A stretch of 64,000 nt of DNA. Origin: a virus. The notes under the pieces are model-generated. The model saw nothing but the letters and a program-made list of their open reading frames with translations, ran no database searches and had not been told where the DNA came from. Positions 219 to 57,926 of the stretch are shown piece after piece. A program made the position numbers and the translations under genes. Location of the stretch: the IMG/VR virus record IMGVR_UViG_3300045988_176028; one strand, given 5' to 3'. The stretch's first letter is position 1. The number at the start of each line of letters is the position of its first letter.

Positions 219-240
219 TGTTATACTGGAATCGTCCACA
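219..240 (+). promoter_or_regulatory. Conserved promoter/leader box, copy 1 (TGTTATACTGGAATCGTCCACA)
   Basis: Extended -10 (TGtTATACT) at 219-227 and a TTGCGT -35-like hexamer at 199-204 (17-bp spacer). One of 10 near-identical boxes in the window. Confidence 0.6.
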
Positions 241-291
241 AAAAAAGGGAGCCACACACTCCCAACCACGCCAGAAAAAAAAGAAGAAACC

Positions 292-468
292 ATGAGCAAA
301 CAGACGGAAAACAACATCAACCTGACATTGACACTCATCACAATCGTCAGCGCACTCCTCATGTGGAGACAGGATTACGGCCACGTGGTAATGGCAATCA
401 CCAGCATCACATTTCTACTCAGCTCCACCGCACTGTTCGCTCACTTCATCAAGAAACTCGACGCCTAA
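292..468 (+). CDS. Small membrane protein (58 aa)
   Basis: ATG at 292 lies downstream of the box at 219. Two hydrophobic segments (LTLTLITIVSALLMW, VVMAITSITFLLSSTALFA). The upstream part of track ORF 52..468 overlies the promoter and is discarded. Confidence 0.5.
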   Translation: MSKQTENNINLTLTLITIVSALLMWRQDYGHVVMAITSITFLLSSTALFAHFIKKLDA

Positions 469-481
469 AAAACAAAAAGGA

Positions 482-509
482 ATGCCCCAGCCCGAACGGA
501 CTGGGGCAT
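482..509. terminator. Perfect 9-bp hairpin (ATGCCCCAG-N10-CTGGGGCAT), terminator-like
   Basis: Stem read directly. An A-tract precedes it on the + strand (giving a T-tract on the minus strand), and there is no T-tract after it on the + strand. Confidence 0.35.
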
Positions 510-538
510 AGGCATGTTCGCAAGAACGAAGGAAACCA

Positions 539-7242: not shown

Positions 7243-8435
7243 CATTCGATGACCGTTTTCTTTTCGACCCGAACGACGAGAATCTTTGGAAGACCGGAAG
7301 CATTGCCGACTGGTATAAAGGCAACGACATGTTCGAGATGGAGCATCCCGGATTGTTCGCGCAGACCCACCCGTGGTTCGTTGCGAACAAACTGTTCGCG
7401 GAGACAATGGTGAAAGCGAACAGCGAACTCGTTTCGAGTATCCTCGGCGCATTGTTCACTTGGAAGACATGCACGGTTGACCAACTACGTGCGGGACTTT
7501 CCATCAAAGGCGCTCCCGCTTTCGAACGTGACGAACCGAACCTGTATGGTGCGATGAACCGTTTGGGAATCATCAACGTCGGTTTCAGTCAGGCGGAACG
7601 ATTGTACGGTCAGACCGTGAATCATGTTTGGCTTTCACCGTCGAACAGTCCACGTCTTATCAACCGTGCGATGAAATTGTACGGGATGGAAAAGTGGATG
7701 CGTGAGACGATGGCGGTTTCCTATTACGCGGGGAATCGTTTCCATGTTCGGCATAACACTTATGCGGCGCACGCGGGATTGATGTTGGCACGCGATTCAC
7801 GCGTGAAATTCTCATCCGGTGATGGTTGGGGAAAATTCCGTAGCGTTGACCCACAGGCTGTTGCCGAGTCGAAGGTCGGCAAGGCTTGCGCGACCGACGT
7901 GGTGACGTTGTGCCGGAACAATGTGTTGGCGGGTATCGAAATCCAAACGTCCAACAGCGAATTGGATAAGAAGATGCAGAACTGGGCTAAGATGCTCGCC
8001 TATTCTCCGATGAAGCGTCGCGGACTCATCTGCGTATGGTTGCAGATACCGAAGGCAAACGAAGGTTACGAATCGTTCAACGCGGTGGTACAACGCACGC
8101 AAGGCATGACGGAAATGGTCGTGGGCAATCCTACCGTGTCGCAACGAATGGGAATCGCGGTCTGGGACGAATGGTTCGAGCATGGGATGCCGACCGACAG
8201 GTTCGGTGACTATACGGATATGAGTGGAACACGACGCAACATTTTCTCCGACGAGTGGGCGCAATATACTCCGCAGGTTCGTGACGTTCGCAAAGTCAGC
8301 GAATGGGGTTGGGACGTGACGCGAGACATCATAAAGAAGGATTGGGGTTGGGATGTTTCCGGTTGGACAATGCCGGAAGCGTACCGTGGCGGTTTCTACG
8401 GTTTCATTGGAAAGGATTGCGATGGTCTCCACTGA
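7239..8435 (+). CDS. Replication-relaxation-family-like protein (candidate relaxase or accessory protein)
   Basis: GTGA overlap with the upstream gene. N-terminal winged-helix-like segment (ILGALFTWKTCTVDQLRAGL...AMNRLGIINVG), then FHVRHNTYAAHAGLML and ATDVVTL...GIEIQTS motifs. Family assignment is from memory of the pattern only. Confidence 0.5.
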   Translation: MTFDDRFLFDPNDENLWKTGSIADWYKGNDMFEMEHPGLFAQTHPWFVANKLFAETMVKANSELVSSILGALFTWKTCTVDQLRAGLSIKGAPAFERDEPNLYGAMNRLGIINVGFSQAERLYGQTVNHVWLSPSNSPRLINRAMKLYGMEKWMRETMAVSYYAGNRFHVRHNTYAAHAGLMLARDSRVKFSSGDGWGKFRSVDPQAVAESKVGKACATDVVTLCRNNVLAGIEIQTSNSELDKKMQNWAKMLAYSPMKRRGLICVWLQIPKANEGYESFNAVVQRTQGMTEMVVGNPTVSQRMGIAVWDEWFEHGMPTDRFGDYTDMSGTRRNIFSDEWAQYTPQVRDVRKVSEWGWDVTRDIIKKDWGWDVSGWTMPEAYRGGFYGFIGKDCDGLH

Positions 8436-8887: not shown

Positions 8888-11548
8888 ATGGGTAATCCGA
8901 ACTGGTATCAGATAACCAGAACGTTGCAACAGTTAGACCCGGACGAGCAACGTTCTAAAGTGGAGAGCATTCCAGCCGAACTGGATGGTTGCACCCTTCT
9001 CCTCATCAAGAAGGGCGAGGAGCCGGTCAAGGAATATATTTACGGTGACGGCGAGGGAATCGTCAACGCCGGACAGTTGGCTGGTTTTGACGCGAGACTG
9101 GTCGAAGACGACGACGGGCCGGTGTTGCCGGATGGCGTGAACAGTGCGGCGCATCCTCTTGTACCATTTCGCGCCCGGTTGAACTCGAAAAGCAACATGG
9201 AGAAGATGCGGACGAACTATTCCGGCGTTCGTACAAGCATCGAGAAGGTCATGCCGCCGGACAGTTATGTGAGCGTCACGCTTCGCAATCAGGGATACTT
9301 CGAGCAGATTCGCATTCGTAATTGGATTAGCGACGAATACAATGCGGTGGAGGATTCAAGCGAACTCGCTTCGACCAACACGATGTGCGCCCGTGTGAGT
9401 TTCGGTTGCCGTCAGGCTTCGCGTAACCGACAGCTTGCGCAGAAGATTGGTCAAATCATCTGTCCGCTCATATCCAACATGTCCAGTCATGCGAGCCGTC
9501 CGAAATTCGGTTTGCTGTTCGTCAGCATGCTGTTGGAAGTGTTGTCCGTGATTTGGAGTGTGTGCGGTCTTGCAAGAGGATACGTGATGGATGGCGTGTT
9601 CCCATTGTTCCATTCCGCTTGGGGTTTCGGAATCGCGCTTCCACTGCTTGCGGTGACGTTGGTCGTGTTCCTGTTCCTCATGCTGTTGTCGTGCATTCCG
9701 TTCGTTTACATTCCGCGACCTCAGATTGCCGGTGGCGCGGTGGCTCTCATGCTTTACCTGCTGTTGGGGTTGCTTCCGCTCCCGACATTCATTCCGATTC
9801 TTTTCGTTCCTCTTCTTGTATTCGCGTTCATCCGTTGGAAGAATTGGACGTTGTGGGATGACATTTTCCAAACGCCACGCAGATATTATGCGATTGCGAA
9901 CGACCGTGGCGCGAACGAGTCCGATAATCAGACCCGTCTTGGCGTGCGAACTCATAAGGAGCGTGTGTCGGCTTATGGTGCGCAACGTACCACGTTGATT
10001 CTTTCCCCGATTATCGTGAGTTCCGTGTTCACTCCGGTCACTCAGGGAGTGGCGATGAAGCAGGAGTTGCATCCGGTTCCGGAAGTATTGTCTCATGATG
10101 GCATCTTCCTCGGGAAAGACGATACGGGACGTAACTGTTATCTCGACCCGTCGCAATTGTTCGGCGGTATCGCCATCAACGGTGAAGCCGGTTCCGGTAA
10201 GACAGTTCTCACTCATGGCATCAGCCAGTGGGCAATCAGCGCACGAGAAACCACCAGTCCGAAAATCTGGGGGCGCGACTCCCGTATCATCCATTTTTGG
10301 ATGAAGGATGATACCGGCGTCAACGTGTTGGAACGTTATCGCAAACGTCACGGTTTCACCAGTCCGCAGCGAGTCGTCTACTTGGCAGACCCGAACAGTG
10401 TATGTTTGGACATGCTTGGCATGAAGGACGGGAACAATGCGATGGAGACTGCGGCGAGCGTGGCGAAAACCATGCGCTACTCGTTCGATGACGGTGATAT
10501 TCTGAACGACTCGCAGAACATCATCACCCAAGCGTTGACCATCGGCGTGGCGGTTGACCGTTACGTGCAGGAGGAGCGCAAGCATAATCCCGAATCCGCG
10601 AACAAGGATTGGGAAAGCGAGATTGTGAAACGTTGCCACCAGCTCGAACAATCGTATCCGGGTGCGGAACAGTTGCGAATGCAGTTGAGTCCAATCGGAT
10701 GGGCCGTCGTCGCATTATGCGGTTCCGACGGTCAGGCCGGTTCCGCGAAAGCGTTGGGCCATGTGTGCCGCGCGTTGAGCATGGAGTTGAAGAGTGGCTA
10801 CATGTTCGAGGAGATGACGTATGCGGCTCGTGCGGCCGAACAATTGTATGGCCGTCCGGATGCGGCTGGTCATACGGTTCGTTCCGACCGTGACATTCTT
10901 ACGAAGACGAACGCTTCGTTGAACAAGGTGAACCAGTTCCTTCCCATCGAACACATGTTCACCGCACGCCGTGGCAAGGTGACTTGGACGAACATTCTCG
11001 ACCATGCTGGCGATTATCACATTGTGCTCGCACCACATAATGGTTATTCGTTGCCGGAACGTATGGATAAGATTCTCGGCGGCTGGCTCATGTACCGTTT
11101 CTGGAATACGGTGTTCGCGCATTGCAAGGATTGGGACAAGGCGGGCAAGTGGACGATGCTCGTGTGCGACGAGTTGAGCCTGTTGGCTAACGGCAATGAT
11201 GGCATCATGCCCGCATTGCGCGAGCAGGGCCGTTCGTTCGGTCTTCTTCTCGTGTTCGCCACCCAGTATCCGACCCAGTTGTCCGACGCGATGTTGGATT
11301 CGTTCATCGGCTATTCGACGTTCATCACATACAATACGACGATTCCGCGTATCGCCGATATGACGGCGAAGCGTCTGACGAACAATGACGGGGAGGATGG
11401 TTGGCGTTCAGGTGCGGTCATGAATCTTCCGCGTTATGCGGCGGCTGTTCGCACTCGAACCCAAGAACAGTTGCAGCCGACATTCCTTGTCCATGTGAAC
11501 GATTTCGATAACGGTTATCGCAATGGTGACATGGACGATGATGACTAG
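8888..11548 (+). CDS. Type IV secretion coupling protein (VirD4/TraG/TcpA-like, FtsK-HerA superfamily)
   Basis: Several TM segments around aa 200-330. Walker A (INGEAGSGKTVLT), Walker B (MLVCDELSLLA) and LLLVFATQYPTQL. Strong RBS. Confidence 0.85.
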   Translation: MGNPNWYQITRTLQQLDPDEQRSKVESIPAELDGCTLLLIKKGEEPVKEYIYGDGEGIVNAGQLAGFDARLVEDDDGPVLPDGVNSAAHPLVPFRARLNSKSNMEKMRTNYSGVRTSIEKVMPPDSYVSVTLRNQGYFEQIRIRNWISDEYNAVEDSSELASTNTMCARVSFGCRQASRNRQLAQKIGQIICPLISNMSSHASRPKFGLLFVSMLLEVLSVIWSVCGLARGYVMDGVFPLFHSAWGFGIALPLLAVTLVVFLFLMLLSCIPFVYIPRPQIAGGAVALMLYLLLGLLPLPTFIPILFVPLLVFAFIRWKNWTLWDDIFQTPRRYYAIANDRGANESDNQTRLGVRTHKERVSAYGAQRTTLILSPIIVSSVFTPVTQGVAMKQELHPVPEVLSHDGIFLGKDDTGRNCYLDPSQLFGGIAINGEAGSGKTVLTHGISQWAISARETTSPKIWGRDSRIIHFWMKDDTGVNVLERYRKRHGFTSPQRVVYLADPNSVCLDMLGMKDGNNAMETAASVAKTMRYSFDDGDILNDSQNIITQALTIGVAVDRYVQEERKHNPESANKDWESEIVKRCHQLEQSYPGAEQLRMQLSPIGWAVVALCGSDGQAGSAKALGHVCRALSMELKSGYMFEEMTYAARAAEQLYGRPDAAGHTVRSDRDILTKTNASLNKVNQFLPIEHMFTARRGKVTWTNILDHAGDYHIVLAPHNGYSLPERMDKILGGWLMYRFWNTVFAHCKDWDKAGKWTMLVCDELSLLANGNDGIMPALREQGRSFGLLLVFATQYPTQLSDAMLDSFIGYSTFITYNTTIPRIADMTAKRLTNNDGEDGWRSGAVMNLPRYAAAVRTRTQEQLQPTFLVHVNDFDNGYRNGDMDDDD

Positions 11549-22985: not shown

Positions 22986-23007
22986 TGTTATACTAGAAGC
23001 GTTCACA
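22986..23007 (+). promoter_or_regulatory. Conserved promoter/leader box, copy 2 (TGTTATACTAGAAGCGTTCACA)
   Basis: Extended -10. Lies 33 nt upstream of the ATG at 23041. Confidence 0.6.
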
Positions 23008-23040: not shown

Positions 23041-23412
23041 ATGAGCAACTACTTCAACAGCATCGAACATCAAATCAACCTCATGCTCGACAGGGAACAA
23101 GACCTCCAAGACGAACAGGAACAGCGCCTACGGGATATTCACGACGGCATCGGAGACTACGTGCTGTTGCCCGAAGGCGACCCGTGGAACATCGATGACT
23201 ACGAGCAAGACCCACAGCCCACCAACGTCAACAACACTTGCAGTCACGGACTCTATGTTGACGAAGGTGTGAAATCTGGAACCATGTATCATCTCAACCC
23301 TGACCTCGGACTGTGGGCGGCTTGTGACGACTACGAGGACATAGAAAAAATGGTCAGGGAAGGCAAAACGCTCACCCAGCCCATCGACGATTACGATTCG
23401 AAGCTCGCCTGA
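23041..23412 (+). CDS. Very acidic hypothetical protein (123 aa)
   Basis: AAGGAG RBS. D/E-rich throughout (DREQDLQDEQEQ, DDYEQD, CDDYEDIE). Confidence 0.65.
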   Translation: MSNYFNSIEHQINLMLDREQDLQDEQEQRLRDIHDGIGDYVLLPEGDPWNIDDYEQDPQPTNVNNTCSHGLYVDEGVKSGTMYHLNPDLGLWAACDDYEDIEKMVREGKTLTQPIDDYDSKLA

Positions 23413-23454: not shown

Positions 23455-23476
23455 CGTTATAGTGGAACCAGTCACA
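23455..23476 (+). promoter_or_regulatory. Conserved promoter/leader box, copy 3 (CGTTATAGTGGAACCAGTCACA)
   Basis: TATAGT -10 with TCACA at the conserved distance. Confidence 0.5.
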
Positions 23477-26008: not shown

Positions 26009-26030
26009 TGTTATAGTGGAACTGTTCACA
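26009..26030 (+). promoter_or_regulatory. Conserved promoter/leader box, copy 4 (TGTTATAGTGGAACTGTTCACA)
   Basis: Extended -10. Lies 23 nt upstream of the ATG at 26054. Confidence 0.6.
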
Positions 26031-26311: not shown

Positions 26312-26349
26312 CATATTCAACAAACTGAGTTACAGTGGAACTGTTCACA
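26308..26349 (+). promoter_or_regulatory. Conserved promoter/leader box, copy 5, with a perfect -35 (TTGACA-N17-TACAGTGGAACTGTTCACA)
   Basis: TTGACA at 26308-13, a 17-bp spacer and TACAGT at 26331-36. Confidence 0.7.
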
Positions 26350-27848: not shown

Positions 27849-27890
27849 TTGTCTCTCTGAAAATTCCATGCTATACTGGAAACGTTCACA
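27849..27890 (+). promoter_or_regulatory. Conserved promoter/leader box, copy 6 (TTGTCT-N17-TATACTGGAAACGTTCACA)
   Basis: The -35-like TTGTCT lies at 27849-54. The box TGCTATACTGGAAACGTTCACA lies at 27869-90. Confidence 0.65.
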
Positions 27891-29166: not shown

Positions 29167-29188
29167 TGTTATAGTGGAATTGTTCACA
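29167..29188 (+). promoter_or_regulatory. Conserved promoter/leader box, copy 7 (TGTTATAGTGGAATTGTTCACA)
   Basis: Extended -10. Lies 22 nt upstream of the ATG at 29211. Confidence 0.6.
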
Positions 29189-30869: not shown

Positions 30870-31001
30870 CTGTAATTACGAACACTTGTTCACTCGAAGA
30901 AACAGGAAGTCAATGCATAACATGAGTTACGACAAGGCACGGACGCCCTTGTGGACAGTCAGGTAGACACCTCCAAGAAACCCGTTCCACATACCCCGCC
31001 T

Positions 31002-31071: not shown

Positions 31072-31115
31072 CAATATAAGCCAGACTCCACACAGGCCAG
31101 ACCAAAAGGAATGTT

Positions 31116-46600: not shown

Positions 46601-49600
46601 CGTTCAGGTCAAGTATCCGACCATCACCACGCACGTGTCCTCCACGAGCGTCGGTGTCGGAGAGGACTTCTACGACACCGCCGACATCAAGGGTGTCGTC
46701 CACGCGGGTGACTTCGTGGTGTTCCGCGCCTACGATGCGGTCGGTGAGAAGCCTGACACAAACGCCAGCCTTCTGCTGAAAGACCAGAAGGTCAACATCA
46801 CTGCGGCTCAGGCGAAGGATTCCGCTCAGGACAAGACCGTGACCGTCAAGTCCAAGACCGTCAACACCATGAACGGTGGAAACGTGTATTGGAAGGCAAC
46901 CCTGTACGACAAGCAGGGACGCCAGCTTGCCACCCACGACCTTGGACTTCCGGAAGAAACCGTCACGGTTCGTCCTCCGACCATCACCACCCAAGTGACC
47001 AAGGGCAAGGTCAAGCCGAGCGAGGAGTTCGCTGATAAGGCGACCATCTCCGGTAAGGTGCTCAAAGGTTCCTACGTCACGTTCACCGCTTACGACGCGG
47101 TATCCGGCGACCCGGATGCCAATGCTCCTAAGCTGTTGGACAACGTGCGTGTGAACATCAAGGACTCCGATGCGGAAGCTTCCGCGTCCAAGAAGTTCAC
47201 CGTCACCAGCCCTACCACCCACACCGATAACTCCGGTTCCGTGTACTGGGTTGCGACTCTGTGGTCTCCGCAAGGCAAGCAGTTGGCTTCCCACGATTTG
47301 GGTCTGCCGTCCGAAACCGTTCAGGTGAATCCGGGTGGTATCGTCACGTCCAACGCGCAGAAGATGGGTGCGACCGGCGAGCAACTGTACGATGAAATCA
47401 CCGTTTACGATGAGACCAGTGAGGCCGAGTCCGCTGATGGTCAGGTTCACGAGGGTGAAGGCAACAGCAATCCGACCGGCGTCATCGGTCGTATTCCGCA
47501 AGGCTCCACCGTCACCGTGGAAATGTACCGTCAGGCCGAAGAGGATGACGGCGACCAAGGCTTGTTCAAGATTGCCGAGAAGACCGTCACCATCGACACC
47601 AACAAGTTCACCGCAATCAAGGCCGGTCAGGAAGGCAACCGTCCGGGCAAGCTGACTTTCAAGGTCACTGACCCGAGCTTCAAGACCACCAAGGCTGGCA
47701 TGATTTACTGGAAGGCCACGTTGAAGACCCCGCAGGGCGGCGTGCTCGACCAGCATATCTACGGTGAAAAGGGTTCCGACCACAAGACCGGTTACAAGAG
47801 TTACGAACGCACCCCGGTGCAGAAGTTCTCCACCACCGTGTCCAAGAAGTGGCTGAGCGACGCGAACGGCAATTACGAGGACAAGACCACGCAAATCTAC
47901 GACGTGCTCCACCAGACCTCGTATGAGCAGTTCGACGGCGAATCCATCGACGGAGACACCTACACCACCGGCAAGACCGCCCAAACACCGAACGGTGCCA
48001 AAGTCCAGTTTGAAATCTGGGCCAAGGACGGCGCGAACGCTGGCAAGATGGTCAAGCAGTACAATGCCGAAGACCTCCCGAAGGTTCGTGAACTCGCCAA
48101 GAGCGAAGACCCGGACAAGAACCATCCGTATGTGGGTACCGATGGTCTGGACAACTACCAGAACGTCAAATCCTCCACGTTCCCGATTCCGTCCGACTGG
48201 TCTGCGAACAAGTACTACTACCGTGTGAAGATTACCGTCCCGTCCACCACTCCGGGCGCTGGAACCGACCCTGCCGACAACAATCGTGATGTTGTCTGGT
48301 ATGGCGACGATGACGAGTCCGAAGAGTTCGACGTGATTCACATGGACACCAAGAGCACCGAACCGTTGTGGCTCGACAGCATGAACGTGTCCGACGAAAT
48401 CACGTTGAAGGGCAACATTCCGGCTGGCTCCCAGTACGAGGCCGAATTGTGGCGCACAAGCAAGGATGGCAACGTCCGTAAGGACGCGGCCACCAAGCAG
48501 GATGATTCCGACCATAATGGCATCGCCTCCGAAAAGGTCGCCACCACCGGTCGCGTAAACATTCCGTCCAAGGCCATCGGCGCCCACCTCAATGGTGTCA
48601 CCTTCCGCTCCAAGAGCGTGAAGAATCCGGGTGTCGGCTCCTACATCTGGCGTGTGAAGATTTACACTCCGGAAATGCCTCACAAGGATGGCAACGGCGT
48701 GGGCACTGGTGGAGACACCAGCATGAACTCCGCATTCGGTGTCATCACCAAGGAGTGGATGACCGCCGCCAAGGCCACCACCGACGCCGATGACTCCCAA
48801 GCCGGTGACTACTGGCAGAACGCCACCGCCAAGCAGAAGGGCAATGGCGACGGTTACGCCGACCGTTGGCTCCTGTTCGACGGCAAGAACATCGCATCCG
48901 AGAAGTTCGAGGTCGTGAAGCTGACCACGAACGTGACCGGAACCCCGAACATCCACACCAGCGAAGGCGAGCATTACGTCGATGTCACCAACGGCAACGA
49001 TGTGAACGATAAGCTCACCATCACCGGTTATATGCTCAAGGACTACAAGGTCGCGTTCAAGCTGTACAAGCAAGCCGAGAATCAGACCGCCGACAAGGAC
49101 ACCGTCGTCAAGACCCTTGACCCGGTTGCCCTGACCGAAGCCCAGAAGACCCTCGACTCCGCTTCCGTACATCTGACTGACCCCGCCGACTACTACTGGC
49201 AGTGGGTGTTCACCAAGCCGGACGGCACCGCCTTCCAGCCTGACAACATCAACCCGGCAGTCTCCGATAAGCGCATCAAGGACGAGTCCTTCCACGCCGT
49301 CCGCGTGACCACCAGCACCTACAAGTGGGCTTCCAAGAACGGTACCGTTCAGGATGTCGCACGACTCGAAGGCCACCTGCCTGAGAACGCGACGCTCACC
49401 TTCGAGATGCATGATTACGCAACCGGCAAGAAGGTCGCCTCCACCAAGTCCGCCACCCTCAAGGAACTGGGCTTCGACAAGTCCAGCATCGACCAGCAGT
49501 TGACCAGCCCGAGCCTCAAGGTTCCGGACGCAATCGACTACTACTGGGTTGAGGTTCTGAACCTGCCGAAGGATGACCAGAACACTCCGTTGCACACCGG

Positions 49601-51764
49601 CAAGGACAAGGTCAAGAACGAGTCCTTCCGTTCCATCGAAGCGCAGACCGATATCGCCACCGAACGTTATGTGGGCACCGTGGTCAAAGACCATGCCGAC
49701 CTGACCAACGTGAAGTGGAAGCAGTCCGGCGACATCCGCGACGATTTGGCCCAAGGATTGGACGCACGCTGGTTCCTGTACAAGCAGGGCGACGGCGATG
49801 TGAAGACCGATAAGAAGATTTTCACCGGCGACTACGTACATCTGGCCAGCGGACAGACCGAAGCCTACGGCCCCGAACACAAGATGGACGAGGTGGGCGA
49901 CTACTACTGGGTCATCGAAATCAGCGACCCGAGCACGAATCACAAGGTTGTCAAGCTGGGAACCCAGCGCGACCCGCGTGAATCGTTCCGCATCGTAAAG
50001 GCTTCCTCCGAAGCTCAGGTGGCACAGCAGGTCAACAAGCCCACCAAGGACACCGTGACCATCACCGGACATCCGGCAGAAGGCACTCTGGTCTCTTGGA
50101 ACCTGTACAAGACCAATACTGCCGACGACGACGATTATCTGATTGACAAGACTGAGCAGCAGCAGGGCGAGAGCGAAGGCTCCGACGATACTGACGCCGA
50201 TGCCGAACCTCAATCCGATAACGGCGAAGCCTCCGACAGCATGCTCGTCGCAAGCTATCAGACCCCGGCTGATGGTGCTCACCTCATCACCGCCGAGGAA
50301 GCCGCCGAAGCGTTGAAGAACGGCAAGGTGACAGTGGAAAGCCCCGAGTATACTCCGACCGAGGTTGGCGAATACTACTGGGTGTTCAGTCTGACCAGTC
50401 CGACGAAGAACCTCGCCGGTGACGGACAGCCGAACAAGCCGCAGAACGATAAGGACACCAGCCATCTGGAGTCCGAGGACTTCTTCACCGACCGCGCCCA
50501 TGTGGCCGATGAGACCGTCCAGATTATCGACGCGACCACCAAGACCAAGCCGCTGGGACACGTCGGGGAGAAGTTCCATGACACCGTGCTCCTGCAAGGA
50601 CGCGTGCCGGAAGGCTCTCAGGCGGACGCCACCCTCTACCGTCAGGTGGACGGCGACGATTCCAGCAAGGATGAGGAGGTTCTGACCACGAAGCGCACCA
50701 CGCTCTCCGAAGGTCAGGCGTTCGCGGACTTGGAGGATGTGACCGTTGACAAGGTTGGCGTGTACTACTGGCGTGAGCACGTGTACGTGCCGACCAAGCA
50801 CACCACCACCGCAGACCACGACAAGAAGGTGGAAGTCGAGAAGACCCCGACCATCACCGGAAAGCCTCGCGTGAGCAACGAGACCGTCAGCGTGGTCAAC
50901 GTGACCACCACCACCCACCGTCTGGAAGAATCCGGCATCAAACTTCAGGACAAGGCGAAGATTGAAGGCAACGTCGTTGACGGCTCCTACATCATCTTCA
51001 CCCTGTGGAAGCAGTCCGATGGCGACGACTCCAGCAAGGACGAGAAGGTGTTCACCAGCGACAAGGTGATGCTCAAGGCCGGTCAGAAGGAAGCCGACTC
51101 CCCGACCTACGAGGTCAAGGAGACCGGAACCTACTACTGGCGTGAAAGCATCTACAATCCGGTCGAGGACACCGACATTCCGCCGTGCGTCCCGCCGACC
51201 GGAAACACCGACGAAGACCATCCGTGCGACACTCCGGTTCATACCGAGAAGCCGCGCACGCCGGGTGAAACCACCGACGTGGTGAAGGTCGCGACCAAGG
51301 CCCAGAGTAACGGCACCGCCACCAAGCCGGTCAAGGATACCGCCCTCATCGAAGGCAAGATTCCGAACGACGACTACGAGCTGGTGTTCGAACTGTGGAA
51401 GCAGAACGGCAACGATGTGAAGGACGACCAGAAGGTCGCCACCACCGACGCCGTGAACGTCCCGCAGAACGCGACCACGGTCGATTCGCCGGAAGTCACC
51501 CCGTCCGACGCTGGAACCTACTACTGGCGTGAGAAGCTGGTGGAGAAGTCCACCAAGCGGCTCGTCCACTACGGTGAGGCCCGTGTTCCGGGCGAGACCG
51601 TAATCGTGGGCGAACTCGCCAAGACCGGTATCGCAAGCGGCTTCATCATTCCGCTCATCGGAATGCTTGCAGTGCTTGGACTGGGATTGGCGGTCGTTTC
51701 CGAAGGAAAGCGTCGCATCGCTTCCCTCTCGAACGGCGCTCATCTGTCCGGCTCCACGAAGTGA
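43662..51764 (+). CDS. Giant LAxTG-anchored adhesin (2700 aa) with N-terminal thioester-domain-like motifs and about 15 Ig-like modules
   Basis: GGAG RBS and a signal peptide. VYCVEAG (Cys codon 43917-19) and FTQASVAYAI (Gln codon 44037-39). Repeated ...YYW/VYWKATL... modules. C-terminal LAKTG, a TM and KRR. Confidence 0.85.
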   Translation: MGNPLSKTSRKVKDSILKRVGKAAVALVAATATLASGVITTGSALAATTDGPGYWFNATRSGSWWIGTHGSSLGPQRYENGNPVYCVEAGEPVTNTGTWNKATDVNHKVGAWLVEKHKGDSSDFTQASVAYAIHEHLDQGSSHFRQLVAAGLEGADINAVASNAANLWNDAYNTLPANLNAAYAYTSGKRTGTVDPGVKNSSGQYIAGIQYTATLNGPAKFDQTGTNTISGTTTGQAMHIPWTATGNGKVTGHVSINVPTAAVLNSPGQDMMRPSDPENQTADVQFSVSRDFQPTVSTRVSKKQLTRGSPVEDRVTSGVASSDDEWADNVPVKFKGYYFVGDSKHILQVIKKNNGENPTDYLKRLRETDGIRQVAAATTRFIKSGQTNTVKAKAATGGIDYDSVNGLDDYQVSDEDAGLFGTWVWVEVKSDQSQQDYIKGDYIDEFGKTQETSVSVLPPNHDSTVLEQESGMNKDILDEINISRLPSDYGKFTGDTNYGFNADAKAKIRVWWAGSGTGNKDEDEKYVPTTEEEPTQDANHKLVGEWEVPAMNGKYKVGGGKIVLYPSDGSDAKTVATDVNIKVTDKAHCGYYVFIYDFPGSDRAEGFKSAYNNPWERSFVTQDAQPVTLTTNVNKTTVTQGEKFYDTATISGLVPRGSYVTFTAYDAVSGEPDVSTNKLLDNTRVNVTNDQADHSDTTQFEVKSPEISTNKIGKVYWVAKLYNAKGKALAGHAIGLENETIEVVGPSLTTKTSAQQTYVGRPFHDTAVINNKIDAGAYLTFTAYDAVSGKPDTNAAKLLDNKRVDIPADKIASSGAGKSFTVDSPDVTATKAGIVYWKATLYNKGGMELATHELGATGESVLIKNPSITTKVSKEQVSINEEFTDTATINGEIESGDYVTFDAYAPVDGAPNAQGAKLLDSERVNIPAKDVTASQNGQAINVTSPKTHATEGGNVYWKATLHRANGTVLATHDLGVGGETVQVKYPTITTHVSSTSVGVGEDFYDTADIKGVVHAGDFVVFRAYDAVGEKPDTNASLLLKDQKVNITAAQAKDSAQDKTVTVKSKTVNTMNGGNVYWKATLYDKQGRQLATHDLGLPEETVTVRPPTITTQVTKGKVKPSEEFADKATISGKVLKGSYVTFTAYDAVSGDPDANAPKLLDNVRVNIKDSDAEASASKKFTVTSPTTHTDNSGSVYWVATLWSPQGKQLASHDLGLPSETVQVNPGGIVTSNAQKMGATGEQLYDEITVYDETSEAESADGQVHEGEGNSNPTGVIGRIPQGSTVTVEMYRQAEEDDGDQGLFKIAEKTVTIDTNKFTAIKAGQEGNRPGKLTFKVTDPSFKTTKAGMIYWKATLKTPQGGVLDQHIYGEKGSDHKTGYKSYERTPVQKFSTTVSKKWLSDANGNYEDKTTQIYDVLHQTSYEQFDGESIDGDTYTTGKTAQTPNGAKVQFEIWAKDGANAGKMVKQYNAEDLPKVRELAKSEDPDKNHPYVGTDGLDNYQNVKSSTFPIPSDWSANKYYYRVKITVPSTTPGAGTDPADNNRDVVWYGDDDESEEFDVIHMDTKSTEPLWLDSMNVSDEITLKGNIPAGSQYEAELWRTSKDGNVRKDAATKQDDSDHNGIASEKVATTGRVNIPSKAIGAHLNGVTFRSKSVKNPGVGSYIWRVKIYTPEMPHKDGNGVGTGGDTSMNSAFGVITKEWMTAAKATTDADDSQAGDYWQNATAKQKGNGDGYADRWLLFDGKNIASEKFEVVKLTTNVTGTPNIHTSEGEHYVDVTNGNDVNDKLTITGYMLKDYKVAFKLYKQAENQTADKDTVVKTLDPVALTEAQKTLDSASVHLTDPADYYWQWVFTKPDGTAFQPDNINPAVSDKRIKDESFHAVRVTTSTYKWASKNGTVQDVARLEGHLPENATLTFEMHDYATGKKVASTKSATLKELGFDKSSIDQQLTSPSLKVPDAIDYYWVEVLNLPKDDQNTPLHTGKDKVKNESFRSIEAQTDIATERYVGTVVKDHADLTNVKWKQSGDIRDDLAQGLDARWFLYKQGDGDVKTDKKIFTGDYVHLASGQTEAYGPEHKMDEVGDYYWVIEISDPSTNHKVVKLGTQRDPRESFRIVKASSEAQVAQQVNKPTKDTVTITGHPAEGTLVSWNLYKTNTADDDDYLIDKTEQQQGESEGSDDTDADAEPQSDNGEASDSMLVASYQTPADGAHLITAEEAAEALKNGKVTVESPEYTPTEVGEYYWVFSLTSPTKNLAGDGQPNKPQNDKDTSHLESEDFFTDRAHVADETVQIIDATTKTKPLGHVGEKFHDTVLLQGRVPEGSQADATLYRQVDGDDSSKDEEVLTTKRTTLSEGQAFADLEDVTVDKVGVYYWREHVYVPTKHTTTADHDKKVEVEKTPTITGKPRVSNETVSVVNVTTTTHRLEESGIKLQDKAKIEGNVVDGSYIIFTLWKQSDGDDSSKDEKVFTSDKVMLKAGQKEADSPTYEVKETGTYYWRESIYNPVEDTDIPPCVPPTGNTDEDHPCDTPVHTEKPRTPGETTDVVKVATKAQSNGTATKPVKDTALIEGKIPNDDYELVFELWKQNGNDVKDDQKVATTDAVNVPQNATTVDSPEVTPSDAGTYYWREKLVEKSTKRLVHYGEARVPGETVIVGELAKTGIASGFIIPLIGMLAVLGLGLAVVSEGKRRIASLSNGAHLSGSTK
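45537..47322 (+). repeat. Five tandem modules of about 119 aa (about 357 bp) inside the giant adhesin
   Basis: Each module runs ...(I/L)TT.V....V....F.DTA.I.G......Y(V/L)TF.AYDAV.G.PD....LLD...V.I........VYW(K/V)ATL....G..LA.H.LG...E(T/S)V.V. Confidence 0.85.
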
Positions 51765-51816
51765 CGGACTGAACCGGTAGGGGAGGGCCGATAGGGTTCC
51801 TTCCCTACACCGCCTA

Positions 51817-51866
51817 GTTTGGGGAGGTGGGAGAGCATGACTCCCCGCCTCCCCAAACTTTTCTTT
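51817..51866 (+). terminator. Rho-independent terminator
   Basis: GTTTGGGGAGGTGGGA...TCCCCGCCTCCCCAAAC followed by TTTTCTTT. Confidence 0.75.
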
Positions 51867-51909
51867 GAAGGTCTTTAACATAGAAAGAAAAAATACGGAA
51901 AGAGGATAC

Positions 51910-54900
51910 ATGCGTAAACCTATCGCCCTGCTTGCGGCAGGTTCGATGATGCTCATGCCGCTATTGGGGGCAACGAGTGTCGTGCTGACACCCGTATCGG
52001 AGGCTTATGCCGAAACCGCCGATAGCACCGCAAGCGACTATCCGGAAGGTGTCACAGCCTATCTGGACGGTACACGGCTAGCGAGCTTCGACCCCTCCGG
52101 AAACGGAGTATATGACGCGACGGGACAAACTGTGGAACTGTCCGGTGTGCCCGACGATTGGACGGTGCAATGGAGAAGCATGGTCAATGGAATCACCAAC
52201 AAGGATTCCATCATGTACATCCTGTCCAACGGTTCCACCACCTATCGTTACTGGTTCGATGGGGCTGACGGCGCGGTTCATACCGTCGAAGAGCTTCACG
52301 GCATGACAATCACTTTGAACGGTCAGGCTGTGGACGGCGACATCACCAAGGGATTCACCATCCACAACGTGACCGCCAGCGACATGAAGGGATATGAGAA
52401 CACCCCATACGGTTGGGTGCTCGACGGTGATTCCGAAGACGACCACTACACGTACACCGCCCATCCAGAGGATTCGGACACGCCAAGCGTCCAATACACG
52501 TTCATGTATGACGACACCCGACCCCACGACAGCATCAATTCGTTGAGGAACCTGAAAGCGTATCTGACCGTTGACGGCAGCGCCGTGAAAGGATTCGACT
52601 ACACGCTCGCCAACACCGACACCATCGCCATTCCAATGAACACCGACGTGCGTCTGGAAGGCGTACCGGACGGCTGGAAAGTTGACTACAACAATCCTTC
52701 CACCGGGAAACTGAACCGCGTATACACGCTGACCGGCCCCTGTGGGGACACGTTCACCTACATCTTCCATCCGACTTCGGATTACAAAGGATACTATTAC
52801 ATCGACCAGCTCCAATACGTCCGGGCATTCGCTGACGGGGAACTGGTTGACGGATTCGACTACAAGGGAGGCGCATGGAGTTTCCCTGAAACCACCAAGA
52901 ACGTCGAAATCGCAAACGTACCAGACGACTGGAACACTCAACGTACCGTTAATGGCAACATCATCACCTACGTGGTATCCAGTCCGAACAATTCCGTCTC
53001 TGTCACCTACGTGTTCAACATCGCCAAACATCAGGCAAGTCTGGACGAACTGGCGAATGTGAAAGCCATCGTAGGCGGCAACTATGTTTCCGGATTCAAC
53101 CCGAAACAGTCCGGTATCTACGAATACGAAGACGGTCAAGGAATCGCCATCGTCAACGTGCCGTCCGGATGGACTCAGACCACAACCGACGGTGACGGAT
53201 ATAAGGTGTATACGTTGACCAGTGGAGACCTTTCGGTGTCCTACCGTTTCAACAAGCATGTGAAAACCTATTCGGTGGACGAGCTTGCCAAAGTGTCAGC
53301 TTCTACCGACGACGGCGTGGTTCAGGATTTTAAGCCGATGGAGTCCGGCACCTACACCATTGGAGAGCACGCTACCGTGTGGATTACCGGCGTGCCCGAC
53401 GGTTGGGATACCAAATCGTCCGACAATGATATGACCTACACGGTGACTAGTCCCGACGGGAAAATCAAAGTCGTCTACACGTTCAAACATGCGAAGCACC
53501 AGTATTCCGCTTCCGAATTGAAGAACGTCACCGCAAAACTCCCCAACGGAGACTACCTCAACGGCTTCGACCCGGTCTCCGGTGGTGAATTCACCGTACC
53601 GATGGGAACCAAGAACGTGACCATCGGTCATATTCCGAACGGGTGGAACCTCACCAAGAACAATGGACTGTCCTACACGCTAACCAGCAATGATGGGGAA
53701 GTGTCCGTCTCCTATAAGTTCCATGCGAAGAACGGCCATACGGTAGTCTTCGACACTGATGGAGGAACCACTGTCGAATCCCAAACCGTCGAGGATGGGG
53801 GAACTATCACACCACCCGACGACTATCCGTCCAAGACCGGCTACCGTTTTAAAGGCTGGTATAAGGATGGTGTCCCATACGATTTCACACAACCCGTCTA
53901 TGATGATGCGGTAATCACAGCCAAGTGGACGGTAAACACTTACGAAGTGTATTTCGACGCCGGAGCCAGTGACGACTGGTATCCTATGCAGACCATCGCA
54001 TATGGCGATAAGGTCGTCAAGCCGGTTGACCCGACTTTGGACGGTTACGATTTCGCCGGATGGCTGTTGGATGGCAAAGTGTACTCGTTCGACACTCCTG
54101 TCACCGCCGACATGACCTTGACCGCGTCTTGGAAGACCGCGCAGGTGAAGACGCATACGGTAACTTTCACCGGTGCGGGAGACGATTTCATCCAAACCGT
54201 GGCGGATGGTTCCTCGGCCACTGTTCCAACGGTTCCTTCCAAGAAAGGCTACACGTTCGACGGATGGTATTCCGGAGACTCCCTGTACGATTTCACCACG
54301 CCCGTTACGGATGATTTGACTGTGGAAGCCCATTGGACGAAGAACACGTACACGGTCAGCTTCGACTCCAATGGCGGAAGCGACGTGGACTCCCAGCAGG
54401 TGGAATACAAGGATACGGTGTCCCAGCCGGACAATCCGACATTGGACGGTTATACATTCCAAGGTTGGACTCTTGACGGCGACCCGTATGACTTCAACAC
54501 TCCAGTCACCTCCAGCATCACGTTGAAGGCACTATGGTCTAAGAACACGCCAGTAGCCAAAAAACATACGGTCACATTCGACAGTAGCGAGGGAAGCAAG
54601 GTCGATAGCCAAACCGTCAAGGAAGGCGACCCCGTGTCCAAGCCTGACAATCCAACCCGTGAAGGATACACGTTCAACGGTTGGCTGTTGGGCGGAGACC
54701 CGTATGATTTCACCACTCCCGTCATGCAGGATTTGACGTTGACGGCCTCTTGGACGAAGAACAAGAGCACGTACACCGTGAAGTTCGATTTGAATGGGGG
54801 AGATGGCAATATCGCAGACCAGAAGGTCAAGGAAGGCTCCACCATCGACCGTCCGGCCAATCCGACCCGTGAAGGATACACGTTCATGGGATGGCAGTAT

Positions 54901-57555
54901 GAGGATTCCGACTGGAACTTCCTGAACACCGTCGCATCCAACATGACATTGACGGCGCAATGGAAGCGCAACGAGGTCAAGAAGTATACGGTCGCTTTCG
55001 ACACTGCGGACGGCACCAGCATCGACCCGCAGACCATCAGGGATGGTGGCAAGGTTTCCAAGCCGGATGACCCGACCCGTGAGGGCTACGAGTTCAAGGG
55101 ATGGACTCTGAACGGCGTTGACTACGATTTCACCGCTCCAGTGAAAGCCGACCTTGTCCTGACAGCCGTATGGACTCCCGTCAAGCCGAAGACCTACACC
55201 ATCACGTTCGACACCGATGGAGGAACCGTAGTCCCCTCCCAGACGGTGAAGGACAAGGGAACGGCGACCGAACCTACCGCCCCAACCAAGACCGGTTACG
55301 AGTTCAAGGGTTGGCTGTTGGATGGGAAAACGTATGATTTCACCACGCCCGTCACCAAGGATGTGACATTGAAAGCCAAGTGGGAGAAGACGAAAGTCGA
55401 ATCCTACACGGTGGCGTTCAATTCAGCGGAAGGAAGTGAGGTGGCGTCCCAAACGGTCGAACAAGGCAAGACCGCCGTCAAACCTGACGACCCGACCCGT
55501 GAAGGCTACACATTCCTCGGCTGGTATGCGGGAGACGCCGCATACGATTGGGATACTCCGGTCACAGGCAACCTCATTCTGACCGCACACTGGCAGAAGG
55601 ACGAGCAACCCCAGCCGAAGACCTACACGGTCACGTTCGACTATCAGAACGGCAGTCCCTCCGATACTCGAACAGTGTCCGAGGGGAACACCGTCTCCCC
55701 GCCGGAAAATCCGGTGCGAGACGGTTACGACTTCCAAGGATGGGTTGCTATCGACGGTTCCGAATTCGATTTCGAACAGCCGATTACCTCTGACACTCTG
55801 GTGAGCGCCAAGTGGAAGAAGCATGAAGACCCGAAGCCGGTCATGCACACCGTCACGTTCAACTCGAACGGAGGCACGAGCATCGACCCGCAGACGGTTC
55901 AGGACGGGTTGACCGTCCGCCGTCCGGCAGACCCGGTGAAGAACGATTATGTGTTCGACGGATGGTATCTTGACAACGACCAGTATGATTTCAACAAGCC
56001 AGTCACCGGTGACATCACGCTGACCGCAATCTACCATCGCAAACCGATACCACAGCCGAACACGTACACCGTGCGTTTCGACACCGGTGAGGGAAGCAAG
56101 GTTGACCCGCAGACCATCATTGAAGGCAAGACCGTCATCCGTCCGGCAGACCCGAGCATGGACGGTTACGACTTCCAAGGATGGCTGTTGGACGGCAAGG
56201 ATTATGATTGGAACACTCCAATCACCGGCGACATGACTCTGACCGCATCGTGGAAGAAGCATGAGGAGCCGAAGCCCGTCACCCATACGGTCAGCTTCTA
56301 CACCGATGGCGGGAACACGGTCGCACAGCAGACCGTGAACGACGGTGAGACCGTCACGGTACCGGATACGCCAACCAAGAACGGATACACGTTCTCAGGG
56401 TGGACGCTGAACGGCGAACCATACGATTTCAACCTTCCCGTCACAGCCGACATCACCTTGAAGGCCACATGGGTTGAAAACCAGAAGCCCCAGCCGAAAC
56501 GCCACACGGTCACATTCGACACGACCGGAGGGTCTGAAATCGGCCAGCAGACCGTCGATGAGGGGGAGAAAGCCATCCAACCCGCAAACCCAACCCGTGA
56601 AGGATACGACTTCCAAGGCTGGTTGCTGAACGGACAAGCCTATGATTGGAACACTCCAATCACCGGCGACATCACCCTCACCGCATCGTGGACTGAGAAA
56701 GCCCCGACCCTATTCACGGTCGCGTTCAATACGGGCGGCGCTTCCAACATCCCATCTCAAAAAGTCAAGGAAGGTGATAAGGCCGCACGTCCGACCGACC
56801 CGAAGCGTACCGGATACACTTTCACCGGATGGCAGTTGAACGGCAAGGACTACGATTGGAACACTCCAATCACCACGGATATCATTCTGACCGCCACATG
56901 GCAGAAGAACGAAACTCCGAAACCGGTCTTCTACACCGTCAAATTCGACACCGGCAACGGTTCGAAGATTGACCTGCAAACCATTCAACAGGGAGGAAAG
57001 GTCAAGAAGCCCGCAGACCCGACCCTGAACAGTTACAAGTTCATCGGATGGCAGTTGGATGGCAAGGACTACGATTTCAACACTGCGGTATCCAAGGATA
57101 TGACTTTGACCGCAGTGTGGGAAGCCAATACCCTGCCCCCGACCGTCAAGAAGCATACCGTGACAGTGACCTTGTATGACGGCAAGACCGAACGTTATGA
57201 GGTCAAGGATGGTGAGAAGCTGACACTTCCATCCAATCCAACCCGTGACGGATACGTGTTCGACGGTTTCATTGACAAGGACGGCAACGTCTACGACATG
57301 AGCAAGCCCGTGGTCAAAGACCTGACGTTGACCTGCGTGTGGAAGAAGGCCAACGGCGTCTCCTCCGACAAGGACAAGGAGATTGCCGACGCATCCACCA
57401 ATGGGACGGTTGGTAATGGCGAACAGAATTCTGGCTCCCAGAATCCTCTAGCCAGCACTGGCGCTCCAATCTACGGAATGGTCATCGCGGCCATCATCGC
57501 CGGACTCGGCGGCATTGGAATACTGCTCGCCCGGCTATGTAGCCGAAACGAGTAA
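51910..57555 (+). CDS. LAxTG-anchored surface protein (about 1881 aa) with 17 Listeria-Bacteroides-type repeats
   Basis: ATG at 51910 after GAAAGAGGA. Signal peptide (...VVLTPVSEAYAETAD). About six N-terminal modules of roughly 85 aa (VPDGW...YTLTS...VSYKF). 17 copies of GY.F.GW...G..YDF. C-terminal LASTG, a TM and RLCSRNE. Confidence 0.85.
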   Translation: MRKPIALLAAGSMMLMPLLGATSVVLTPVSEAYAETADSTASDYPEGVTAYLDGTRLASFDPSGNGVYDATGQTVELSGVPDDWTVQWRSMVNGITNKDSIMYILSNGSTTYRYWFDGADGAVHTVEELHGMTITLNGQAVDGDITKGFTIHNVTASDMKGYENTPYGWVLDGDSEDDHYTYTAHPEDSDTPSVQYTFMYDDTRPHDSINSLRNLKAYLTVDGSAVKGFDYTLANTDTIAIPMNTDVRLEGVPDGWKVDYNNPSTGKLNRVYTLTGPCGDTFTYIFHPTSDYKGYYYIDQLQYVRAFADGELVDGFDYKGGAWSFPETTKNVEIANVPDDWNTQRTVNGNIITYVVSSPNNSVSVTYVFNIAKHQASLDELANVKAIVGGNYVSGFNPKQSGIYEYEDGQGIAIVNVPSGWTQTTTDGDGYKVYTLTSGDLSVSYRFNKHVKTYSVDELAKVSASTDDGVVQDFKPMESGTYTIGEHATVWITGVPDGWDTKSSDNDMTYTVTSPDGKIKVVYTFKHAKHQYSASELKNVTAKLPNGDYLNGFDPVSGGEFTVPMGTKNVTIGHIPNGWNLTKNNGLSYTLTSNDGEVSVSYKFHAKNGHTVVFDTDGGTTVESQTVEDGGTITPPDDYPSKTGYRFKGWYKDGVPYDFTQPVYDDAVITAKWTVNTYEVYFDAGASDDWYPMQTIAYGDKVVKPVDPTLDGYDFAGWLLDGKVYSFDTPVTADMTLTASWKTAQVKTHTVTFTGAGDDFIQTVADGSSATVPTVPSKKGYTFDGWYSGDSLYDFTTPVTDDLTVEAHWTKNTYTVSFDSNGGSDVDSQQVEYKDTVSQPDNPTLDGYTFQGWTLDGDPYDFNTPVTSSITLKALWSKNTPVAKKHTVTFDSSEGSKVDSQTVKEGDPVSKPDNPTREGYTFNGWLLGGDPYDFTTPVMQDLTLTASWTKNKSTYTVKFDLNGGDGNIADQKVKEGSTIDRPANPTREGYTFMGWQYEDSDWNFLNTVASNMTLTAQWKRNEVKKYTVAFDTADGTSIDPQTIRDGGKVSKPDDPTREGYEFKGWTLNGVDYDFTAPVKADLVLTAVWTPVKPKTYTITFDTDGGTVVPSQTVKDKGTATEPTAPTKTGYEFKGWLLDGKTYDFTTPVTKDVTLKAKWEKTKVESYTVAFNSAEGSEVASQTVEQGKTAVKPDDPTREGYTFLGWYAGDAAYDWDTPVTGNLILTAHWQKDEQPQPKTYTVTFDYQNGSPSDTRTVSEGNTVSPPENPVRDGYDFQGWVAIDGSEFDFEQPITSDTLVSAKWKKHEDPKPVMHTVTFNSNGGTSIDPQTVQDGLTVRRPADPVKNDYVFDGWYLDNDQYDFNKPVTGDITLTAIYHRKPIPQPNTYTVRFDTGEGSKVDPQTIIEGKTVIRPADPSMDGYDFQGWLLDGKDYDWNTPITGDMTLTASWKKHEEPKPVTHTVSFYTDGGNTVAQQTVNDGETVTVPDTPTKNGYTFSGWTLNGEPYDFNLPVTADITLKATWVENQKPQPKRHTVTFDTTGGSEIGQQTVDEGEKAIQPANPTREGYDFQGWLLNGQAYDWNTPITGDITLTASWTEKAPTLFTVAFNTGGASNIPSQKVKEGDKAARPTDPKRTGYTFTGWQLNGKDYDWNTPITTDIILTATWQKNETPKPVFYTVKFDTGNGSKIDLQTIQQGGKVKKPADPTLNSYKFIGWQLDGKDYDFNTAVSKDMTLTAVWEANTLPPTVKKHTVTVTLYDGKTERYEVKDGEKLTLPSNPTRDGYVFDGFIDKDGNVYDMSKPVVKDLTLTCVWKKANGVSSDKDKEIADASTNGTVGNGEQNSGSQNPLASTGAPIYGMVIAAIIAGLGGIGILLARLCSRNE
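53731..57348 (+). repeat. Array of 17 repeats of about 70 aa (G-Y-x-F-x-G-W ... Y-D-F ... L-T-A-x-W)
   Basis: Counted by eye in the translated protein. Confidence 0.8.
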
Positions 57556-57573
57556 CGCCTATATATAGCGAGG

Positions 57574-57606
57574 AAGCCTCCAGTCTTAAAAACTGGGGGC
57601 TTTCTC
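57574..57606 (+). terminator. Rho-independent terminator
   Basis: AAGCCTCCAGT-N7-ACTGGGGGCTT followed by TCTC. One mismatch in the stem. Confidence 0.55.
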
Positions 57607-57884
57607 GGTTAAGGGTGTGTATGATTGTTTTGTTATTTTTTCTTTAGAAAGTTTTACTGTGTCTATCAATTCCCCGAAATGCCATGAACAGAATCAAGAA
57701 GACAACCGACATGTGACATACTCGGAGAGTATGTCTAATAGCGTCAACGTCGAAGCACGACGTGAGGCTTTGGAAGGGAAGTACATCTTCTCTTCTTCGT
57801 CTGTTGACGAACTGATGAGGTTTCTTGATAAAGATGATTAATTACGATTCCATTGGGGGTAGGGGCCTTCTCTTTCGTGTTTTC

Positions 57885-57926
57885 TGTCAAATCACGCCAA
57901 TATCTGCTATACTGGGATAGTTCACA
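57885..57926 (+). promoter_or_regulatory. Conserved promoter/leader box, copy 10, upstream of ssb (TGTCAA-N17-TATACTGGGATAGTTCACA)
   Basis: The -35-like TGTCAA lies at 57885-90. The box TGCTATACTGGGATAGTTCACA lies at 57905-26. Confidence 0.65.

Follow-up and report, generated by a model that had tools for sequence, protein, structure and literature searches.

What does a 22-nucleotide (nt) sequence do in front of so many genes of one replicon, and what reads the part of it that an ordinary promoter would not need? The question is raised by IMGVR_UViG_3300045988_176028, an IMG/VR virus record of 64,000 nt (this whole stretch is called the window below), in which an earlier note had pointed out ten near-identical boxes that open as an extended -10 element and run on into a conserved GTTCACA block. 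By sequence comparison, the boxes are a motif already published in 2024 for the family of the Bifidobacterium breve megaplasmid pMP7017, met here in a far more distant family member than examined before. They can be regarded with high confidence as a promoter module of this family of bifidobacterial conjugative megaplasmids. Since the motif was already known, the novelty is limited to an abundant plasmid lineage that carries it and to its invariant core, defined here across three lineages.

Relation to the motif published for pMP7017

Profiling of pMP7017 by RNA-seq had revealed a 34-bp motif, AWAYATGYTATACTGAATATGTCCACATAAAAWA, that overlaps the -10 region of six highly expressed genes; with 13 further copies it amounts to 19 promoters, predicted to drive 56 genes or ~24% of pMP7017 (Dineen et al., 2024; Microb Biotechnol 17:e14405, PMC10832533). 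Homologues of pMP7017 carry the motif and bifidobacterial chromosomes are without it, and it was proposed to be a transcription factor binding site with a presumed plasmid-specific regulon (PMC10832533). The genes driven by these promoters on pMP7017 include ssb, nucleases, CRISPR-Cas genes and many small proteins of unknown function, by the published estimate about a quarter of the coding capacity. The earlier note had independently suggested a plasmid-wide regulon of promoter-headed cassettes, which matches the published reading of a motif lying over the -10 of highly transcribed genes (PMC10832533). The gene content makes its further suggestion, a role in establishment, plausible.

Our own search found 23-27 copies in pMP7017. 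The window box and the pMP7017 motif align without gaps: in both, TGYTATAsT is followed by six bases, with a G at position 10, and then by GTYCACA at positions 16-22. Both overlap the -10 within ~60 bp of start codons, both recur in many copies round syntenic megaplasmids, and both head orthologous genes, among them ssb and two small acidic proteins, with the gene at 23495 and that of the 123 amino acid (aa) acidic protein at 23041 included. The differences lie in the host, which is Bifidobacterium adolescentis here, in the plasmid lineage, which is another one with no DNA similarity and a lower guanine-plus-cytosine (GC) content, and in the details of the box: the discriminator reads GGRANN here and GAATAT in pMP7017, the block is GTTCACA here and GTCCACA there, and conservation ends at about +9 here whereas in pMP7017 it continues to the ribosome-binding site. 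A literature search with the motif string returned unrelated matches only. The boxes are probably strong promoters used plasmid-wide, the evidence of activity being the published pMP7017 RNA-seq.

Megaplasmids of the pMP7017 type are common in the human gut. The invariant TGnTAyAsTG and GTYCACAnA described below offer a precise target for mutagenesis in place of a vague transcription factor site, and the box is a compact, strong and portable promoter for Bifidobacterium genetics.

Presence and placement of the boxes in the window

Both strands of the window were searched with TGYTATASTGGRANNGTTCACA, allowing up to three mismatches. All ten plus-strand boxes came back with the coordinates and sequences given in the earlier note, and the minus strand contributed one more (43063-43084, TGTTATAGTGGATTTGTCCACA), for a total of 11. 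In 100 dinucleotide-preserving shuffles this number was never attained, the average being 0.01 matches per shuffle. A weight matrix trained solely on sites from other contigs and then applied to the window gave these 11 boxes 22-39.5 bits, where the null reached 14.5 at most, and placed a twelfth, degenerate box on the minus strand (31027-31051) at 21.2 bits. With these two minus-strand copies the view that every box lies on the plus strand no longer holds. Six weaker look-alikes had also been listed; those at 17133, 25635, 37588, 43616 and 60574 score below 4 bits and were dropped, whereas the one at 31051 marks a real pair of sites, consisting of box 12 and a variant promoter (Table 1).

All boxes are co-directional with the next gene, and coding content amounts to 53.4 kb on the plus strand and 3.7 kb on the minus strand; the strand bias of the boxes arises because their strand simply tracks gene orientation. 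Of the 12 boxes, 11 lie wholly inside intergenic DNA, which makes up 11% of the window, and the remaining one is overlapped by a marginal open reading frame (ORF) call alone. As had been observed, start codons lie shortly downstream: a Shine-Dalgarno sequence and a start codon follow on the same strand, with 9-67 nt from box end to start codon at 11 sites and a leader of ~230 nt at the twelfth. Likewise, the terminator hairpins seen before several boxes are found immediately 5' of those at 29167 and 35834, and a further one was read from the sequence before 41085.

All nine occurrences of TGnTATAnT in the window, both strands considered, bear the downstream half of the box, and the exact downstream half occurs without its upstream partner only once; the two halves can therefore be treated as one unit. 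Several free-standing TGnTATAnT would be expected by chance in the window, and the absence of any may reflect selection against stray strong promoters. Outside the boxes, GTYCACA is present at about chance frequency in the window (20 occurrences, 15.6 expected).

Replicon and host

Plasmid and phage collections, PLSDB among them, contained no DNA similar to the window, let alone near-identical. The gene content of the window is that of a conjugative plasmid of Gram-positive type and comprises RepA_C, a second Rep-like protein, two ParA proteins, SSB and an AAA ATPase, as well as an ATPase of a type IV secretion system (T4SS), wall hydrolases with CHAP and NlpC/P60 domains, and giant surface proteins with Listeria-Bacteroides repeats. 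Searches of the window proteins against PHROG and Pfam (59 proteins for Pfam) found neither a sigma factor nor an RNA polymerase and no structural genes of phages; Rfam families and tRNAs were likewise not detected in the window. Relatives of this DNA are filed as viral in IMG/VR; a phage origin was rejected, as PHROG and Pfam give plasmid functions exclusively and the homologue pMP7017 is experimentally conjugative. The earlier description of the replicon as a plasmid is thus upheld by its genes and by its homology to pMP7017.

The 886-aa ATPase of the T4SS cluster (8888-11548) shares 59% identity, across 99% of its length, with ATPases of pMP7017 and of B. longum megaplasmids, and 36 tested window proteins match pMP7017 in syntenic order with 30-69% identity. 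The exact ATPase and SSB sequences carry the name Bifidobacterium adolescentis in NCBI, and exact window proteins are found on hundreds to >1000 metagenome contigs, the longest of about 220-240 kb. Because of the plasmid gene set, the synteny with pMP7017 and the NCBI protein names, we assign the window, whose GC content is ~52%, to a common B. adolescentis megaplasmid. It is part of a megaplasmid of ~220 kb, a distant syntenic relative of pMP7017 that is common yet, as far as our literature searches show, undescribed.

Anatomy of the promoter

To define the box, 180 distinct sites were compiled from the window and IMG/VR relatives; as they were chosen by pattern match, frequencies inside the 22-mer are inflated and those in the flanks are unaffected. 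The identification of the 5' half as an extended -10 element is borne out by these sites (T1 82%, G2 89%, T4 97%, A5 100%, T9 100%), and two further plasmid lineages, called B and C below, show the same conservation of the TG and the -10. The fifth -10 base is always C or G and never the consensus A in all three lineages. Upstream, the flanks hold only a faint TTG in the -35 region. The best -35 match averages 2.9 of 6 bases, against 2.7 of 6 in shifted controls, so that the boxes are best described as -35-independent extended -10 promoters. The perfect TTGACA noted upstream of the copy at 26328 is present (Table 1), and overall no compensation of a missing TG by a better -35 was seen. Ordinary contacts of the host sigma-A, with the TG, the -10 hexamer and a G at -6, fully account for the upstream half.

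In 154 distinct contexts, 6 nt separate the hexamer from GTYCACA. Of the 180 sites, 82% have a pyrimidine at position 15, 100% a purine at position 16 (G in 92%) and 84% an A at position 24. At the 41085 box the Shine-Dalgarno sequence starts 4 nt past the box end, and transcription must therefore start within that box. The seventh base after the hexamer is the usual +1. As the discriminator is always 6 nt and position 16 is that seventh base, we infer that +1 is position 16, a G after a pyrimidine, and that transcripts would begin with GUYCACAnA.

A conserved start-site block in three plasmid lineages

A search with an alignment of two ATPases distinguished three lineages, whose ATPases share 51-61% identity and whose GC contents are 52, 57 and 63%. 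Lineage A, the window type, has ATPases 94-99% identical; that of lineage B, the pMP7017 type, is 59% identical to the window's, and that of lineage C (63% GC) 51%. The box consensus is tG.TATAcTGG.a.tGTtCACA.aaa in lineage A, TGtTAtACTGAAtatGtCCACATAaA in lineage B and TGATA.aCTGTaa.aGTCCACaCAaaa in lineage C, which leaves TGnTAyAsTG-N5-GTYCACAnA as the invariant core. The five bases between G -6 and G +1 differ among the lineages and vary inside lineage C, and their number is fixed. On two lineage C contigs from IMG/VR (88 and 66 kb), boxes of the form ACGTGATAyAsTGT-N4-GTCCACACA occur, five of them within 22 kb round the T4SS genes.

The block is also found downstream of a different -10 (TAGAAT or TAAAAT, without TG), with a 7-8 nt spacer and a C before the block, ahead of the Rep-like gene at 31116. 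In a relative with 75% identity across that intergenic region, this variant promoter and the adjoining minus-strand box 12 stand out as islands of conservation. Together, these comparisons suggest that GTYCACAnA (+1 to +9) is a second, separately selected element acting at transcription initiation. We know of no case in which RNA polymerase reads bases +3 to +9. Since the block is in addition plasmid-specific, it calls for an explanation of its own: a strict pattern for the whole box, as opposed to the downstream half alone, had only two isolated matches in the genomes of 185,579 species, none of them in Bifidobacterium.

The distance from the block to the ribosome-binding site varies, and one pMP7017 box precedes a tRNA array without an ORF; the block therefore acts at transcription and not at translation. 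The pMP7017 box in question (120539-125804 region) lies immediately next to the start codon of an oppositely oriented rep gene, which would make the box transcript antisense to the rep 5' end, and is followed by an array of 18 tRNA genes.

The surroundings of the variant promoter deserve mention. TCCACACA is repeated at 21-bp spacing at 31064-31094, just upstream of the 524-aa Rep-like gene, and the relative (~7740-7800) has three copies of GTCCACACAACATAAG. These repeats look like iterons and contain the start-site block of the box. The Rep-like gene itself (31116-32690) has no homologue in PLSDB plasmids or pMP7017.

What may act on the start-site block

The explanation that we favour, with a probability of roughly 0.45, is a sigma-A promoter fused to the start-site element of a plasmid-encoded regulator. 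In this model, the extended -10 TGnTAyAsT-G would recruit host vegetative sigma-A RNA polymerase with no need for a -35, and every transcript would begin at position 16 with GUYCACAnA. A plasmid-encoded regulator would bind the asymmetric GTYCACAnA over the start site and damp the strong box promoters after plasmid establishment, so that upon entry into a regulator-free cell all cassettes would fire together. We infer both the existence of this regulator and the burst on entry; that a plasmid-encoded DNA-binding regulator has its site in the block is a tentative assignment, which falls short of an even chance. As a precedent, pMP7017 represses its own rep promoters in trans.

Several observations weigh against this explanation. 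The search for the regulator gave no candidate: none of 46 representative first genes downstream of boxes encodes a DNA-binding domain (those with recognisable products include SSB, an RNase T-type exonuclease, sortase, RlaP, DUF2786, DUF4192 and LPD28), and no box-linked repressor appeared among the 59 window proteins searched with Pfam. The sole clear repressor of the window, a CI/Xre-like protein (30423-30803), has a separate upstream palindrome as its likelier operator. The block is asymmetric, with no covarying dyad, which is unusual for a dimeric repressor. On pMP7017, steady-state cultures transcribe the box promoters at some of the highest levels of the plasmid (PMC10832533), and any repression must therefore be partial. 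Finally, the strict 6-nt register exceeds what an ordinary operator needs and fits joint recognition with RNA polymerase better.

Much of this would be expected if no dedicated factor existed and GTYCACAnA worked in cis, by influencing initiation or by forming the 5' end of the RNA; possible roles are to set the start at G, ease escape from a tight extended -10, link expression to the GTP pool or provide a 5' terminus resistant to 5'-end-dependent decay. A block that begins exactly at the predicted +1 after a pyrimidine at -1, keeps strict register to the -10, is reused at the start site of a different -10 and lacks symmetry suits such a role, as do the high steady-state activity of the pMP7017 promoters and the empty regulator search. 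We nevertheless consider a purely cis-acting block rather unlikely. It would have to be read by RNA polymerase over bases not known to be read, and its 7-9 invariant bases across lineages of 52-63% GC exceed known effects of the initial transcribed sequence. A good promoter design should also occur in host chromosomes, whereas the motif is absent from those of bifidobacteria (PMC10832533) and the whole-pattern scan gave no Bifidobacterium match. The leaders, moreover, have no predicted structure (mean z -0.4 and +0.2) and their 5' ends no consistent pairing partner, so that a structured leader RNA and base pairing between the 5' end and the start codon were both rejected. It is less probable still that the whole 24 bp are a private promoter class, read as a unit by a plasmid-encoded protein riding on RNA polymerase, such as a sigma-like protein, a sigma appropriator or a WhiB-type partner. 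GTYCACAnA would then be one half of this class, and the idea that a plasmid factor reads it with host RNA polymerase or binds the nascent 5' end is equally improbable. If true, the plasmid would have its own transcription channel in Bifidobacterium. The absent -35, the strict register and asymmetry, the C or G at the fifth -10 base in three lineages, the plasmid specificity of the motif, the lack of free-standing extended -10 elements in the window and a WhiB-family gene within a box-headed operon of pMP7017 all point this way. However, ordinary sigma-A contacts already explain the upstream half, no factor is known to read +1 to +9, the window yielded no WhiB domain, and Pfam detected no sigma factor or RNA polymerase among the window proteins, nor is one annotated on pMP7017. 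A promoter for a single-subunit T7-like RNA polymerase was rejected on the same grounds, there being no such polymerase in either set; promoters of that kind are conserved from -17 to -5, whereas in lineage A conservation does not extend 5' of position 1.

Two further explanations depend on the letters of the block itself. GTYCACA could be the asymmetric target of a plasmid-encoded DNA methyltransferase (Type IIL MmeI-like, or an orphan adenine methylase), with promoters that sense newly arrived unmethylated DNA. Type IIL sites such as TCCRAC are asymmetric with adenines near the 3' end, a format that the 7-bp block shares, and pMP7017 has an MmeI-like system and several adenine methyltransferases; the near-chance frequency of GTYCACA outside the boxes speaks against this reading, which we regard as very improbable. 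That the boxes are sites of a host global regulator, CRP/GlxR or LexA, is already contradicted and hardly deserves belief. TTCACA equals a CRP right half-site, which agrees with the earlier proposal of a CRP/FNR half-site; for TGTGA-N6-TCACA, however, the left half is missing at either spacing, candidate pairs do not covary, lineages B and C have CCACA in place of TCACA, and the motif is absent from chromosomes. For LexA, GTTC is a half-site, and not far off, at 30878-30891, there is a genuine LexA-like palindrome, but against the GAAC-N4-GTTC of the Cheo or actinobacterial SOS box the boxes reach GAA-NN-GTTC at best, and lineages B and C are without GTTC.

Other candidates were examined and rejected. 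Dyad symmetry within the box (TGGA-N4-TCCA, TGT-N16-ACA) is not supported, as the pairs do not covary. For CRISPR-guided recognition, the two type I-E arrays of pMP7017 were compared with the box; among 25 of their spacers, none matched better than 15 of 35, a value at chance level. Rep iterons were dismissed because the box is unrelated both to CTTAGAATTYTGACACC, the repeat of RepA on pMP7017, and to GGnCnAnnR, the bases published as critical for RepB. The two proteins that the earlier note had put forward as binders did not stand up either: 24933-25376 has no recognisable DNA-binding domain, and 30423-30803, a CI/Xre-type helix-turn-helix (HTH) repressor, has its separate palindrome in its own upstream intergenic region, and an unrelated inverted repeat of 17 bp flanks the orthologue on pMP7017.

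The intergenic region just mentioned has an organisation of its own. At 30842-30891, a plus-strand promoter TTGACA-16-TATTGT with the palindrome AGCATA-N6-TATGCT in its spacer is followed by the LexA-like box CGAACACTTGTTCA (30878-30891). Palindrome and LexA-like box occupy the DNA that separates the Rep-like gene from the CI/Xre-type HTH gene, and are largely conserved in the 75% identical relative; the region may be an SOS- or repressor-controlled switch.

Comparison with other systems

IncP-1 plasmids encode global repressors, with the KorA operator at the -10 and, in the kle and klc promoters, the KorC operator lying across the transcription start. As in that system, many strong promoters of one conjugative plasmid have the same short element fixed over the -10 or start site and coordinated expression; unlike the box, those operators are palindromic and bound by known dimers. 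A KorA/KorC-type operator was therefore set aside, as position alone fits and the boxes have neither a dyad nor a linked repressor.

The stoperators bound by gp71 of mycobacteriophage L5 are 13-bp asymmetric sites, present in ~30 copies in one orientation relative to transcription. They share with the boxes an actinobacterial host and the format of an asymmetric multi-copy site in short intergenic regions, oriented with transcription; they differ in sitting apart from promoters and blocking elongation, whereas the box is joined to its -10 at constant spacing. A gp71-like protein was not found. Another mobile element with extended -10 (TGn-plus--10) promoters that need no -35 is Thermus phage P23-45, whose middle and late promoters, in contrast to the boxes, have no conserved block from +1 to +9.

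Genes headed by the boxes

The individual boxes and the genes that they head are given in Table 1.

Table 1. Boxes and variant promoter of the window, with matrix scores and downstream genes.
Feature	Coordinates	Strand	Score (bits)	Context
Box 1, TGTTATACTGGAATCGTCCACA	219..240	+	37.7	Heads 58-aa membrane protein 292-468 and operon to AAA ATPase 1985-2941
Box 2	22986..23007	+		Heads 123-aa acidic protein 23041-23412
Box 3, degenerate (CG for TG, AGTCACA)	23455..23476	+	22.2	Heads 23495-23827 and genes to terminator 25596
Box 4	26009..26030	+	38.2	Heads 85-aa protein 26054-26311
Box 5 (AG for TG, TACAGT)	26328..26349	+	27.2	TTGACA 17 bp upstream; heads 26376-26639 and following genes
Box 6	27869..27890	+	37.4	Heads short ORFs 27918-28004 and 28001-28117, then 28114-29018
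Box 7	29167..29188	+	39.5	Right after terminator 29123-29147; heads 242-aa protein 29211-29939
Box 8	35834..35855	+	34.2	Right after terminator 35795-35824; heads 175-aa membrane protein and operon to 41006
Box 9	41085..41106	+	39.0	Shine-Dalgarno begins 4 nt after box; heads 280-aa protein 41122-41964
Box 10	57905..57926	+	36.2	Heads ssb 57949-58518
Box 11, TGTTATAGTGGATTTGTCCACA	43063..43084	-	30.9	Heads 337-aa gene 41982-42995; overlooked in the earlier note
Box 12, degenerate, AGTCATACTGGGCGTATTCACAAAA	31027..31051	-	21.2	Directed at CI/Xre-type HTH gene 30423-30803
Variant promoter, TAGAAT-N8-GTCCACACAA	31050..31073	+		Precedes Rep-like gene 31116-32690; start-site block on a different -10

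Several of these arrangements recur outside the window. The 58-aa gene after box 1 is also called in metagenome contigs, and the pMP7017 region syntenic to box 1 likewise has a box. On pMP7017, the orthologue of the 123-aa acidic protein (35141-34803) is headed by a box at 35178 and that of the gene 23495-23827 (36052-35807) by one at 36100, both on the minus strand. The box ahead of ssb, which the earlier note had recognised, has its counterpart at 160429 on the minus strand of pMP7017.

Inspected by eye, the 280-aa protein 41122-41964 ends in YRG...SWTS...EHEV, a series reminiscent of the R-S-E signature of ADP-ribosyltransferases; Pfam gave no match for this protein. The window also encodes, at another place, a separate ADP-ribosylglycohydrolase.

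Two giant surface-protein genes, both orthologous to pMP7017 proteins, occupy 43662-57555. The first encodes a protein of 2700 aa with no Pfam match, and a 2335-aa antisense ORF across it is a compositional artefact; the second encodes a protein of ~1880 aa with 17 Listeria-Bacteroides repeats.

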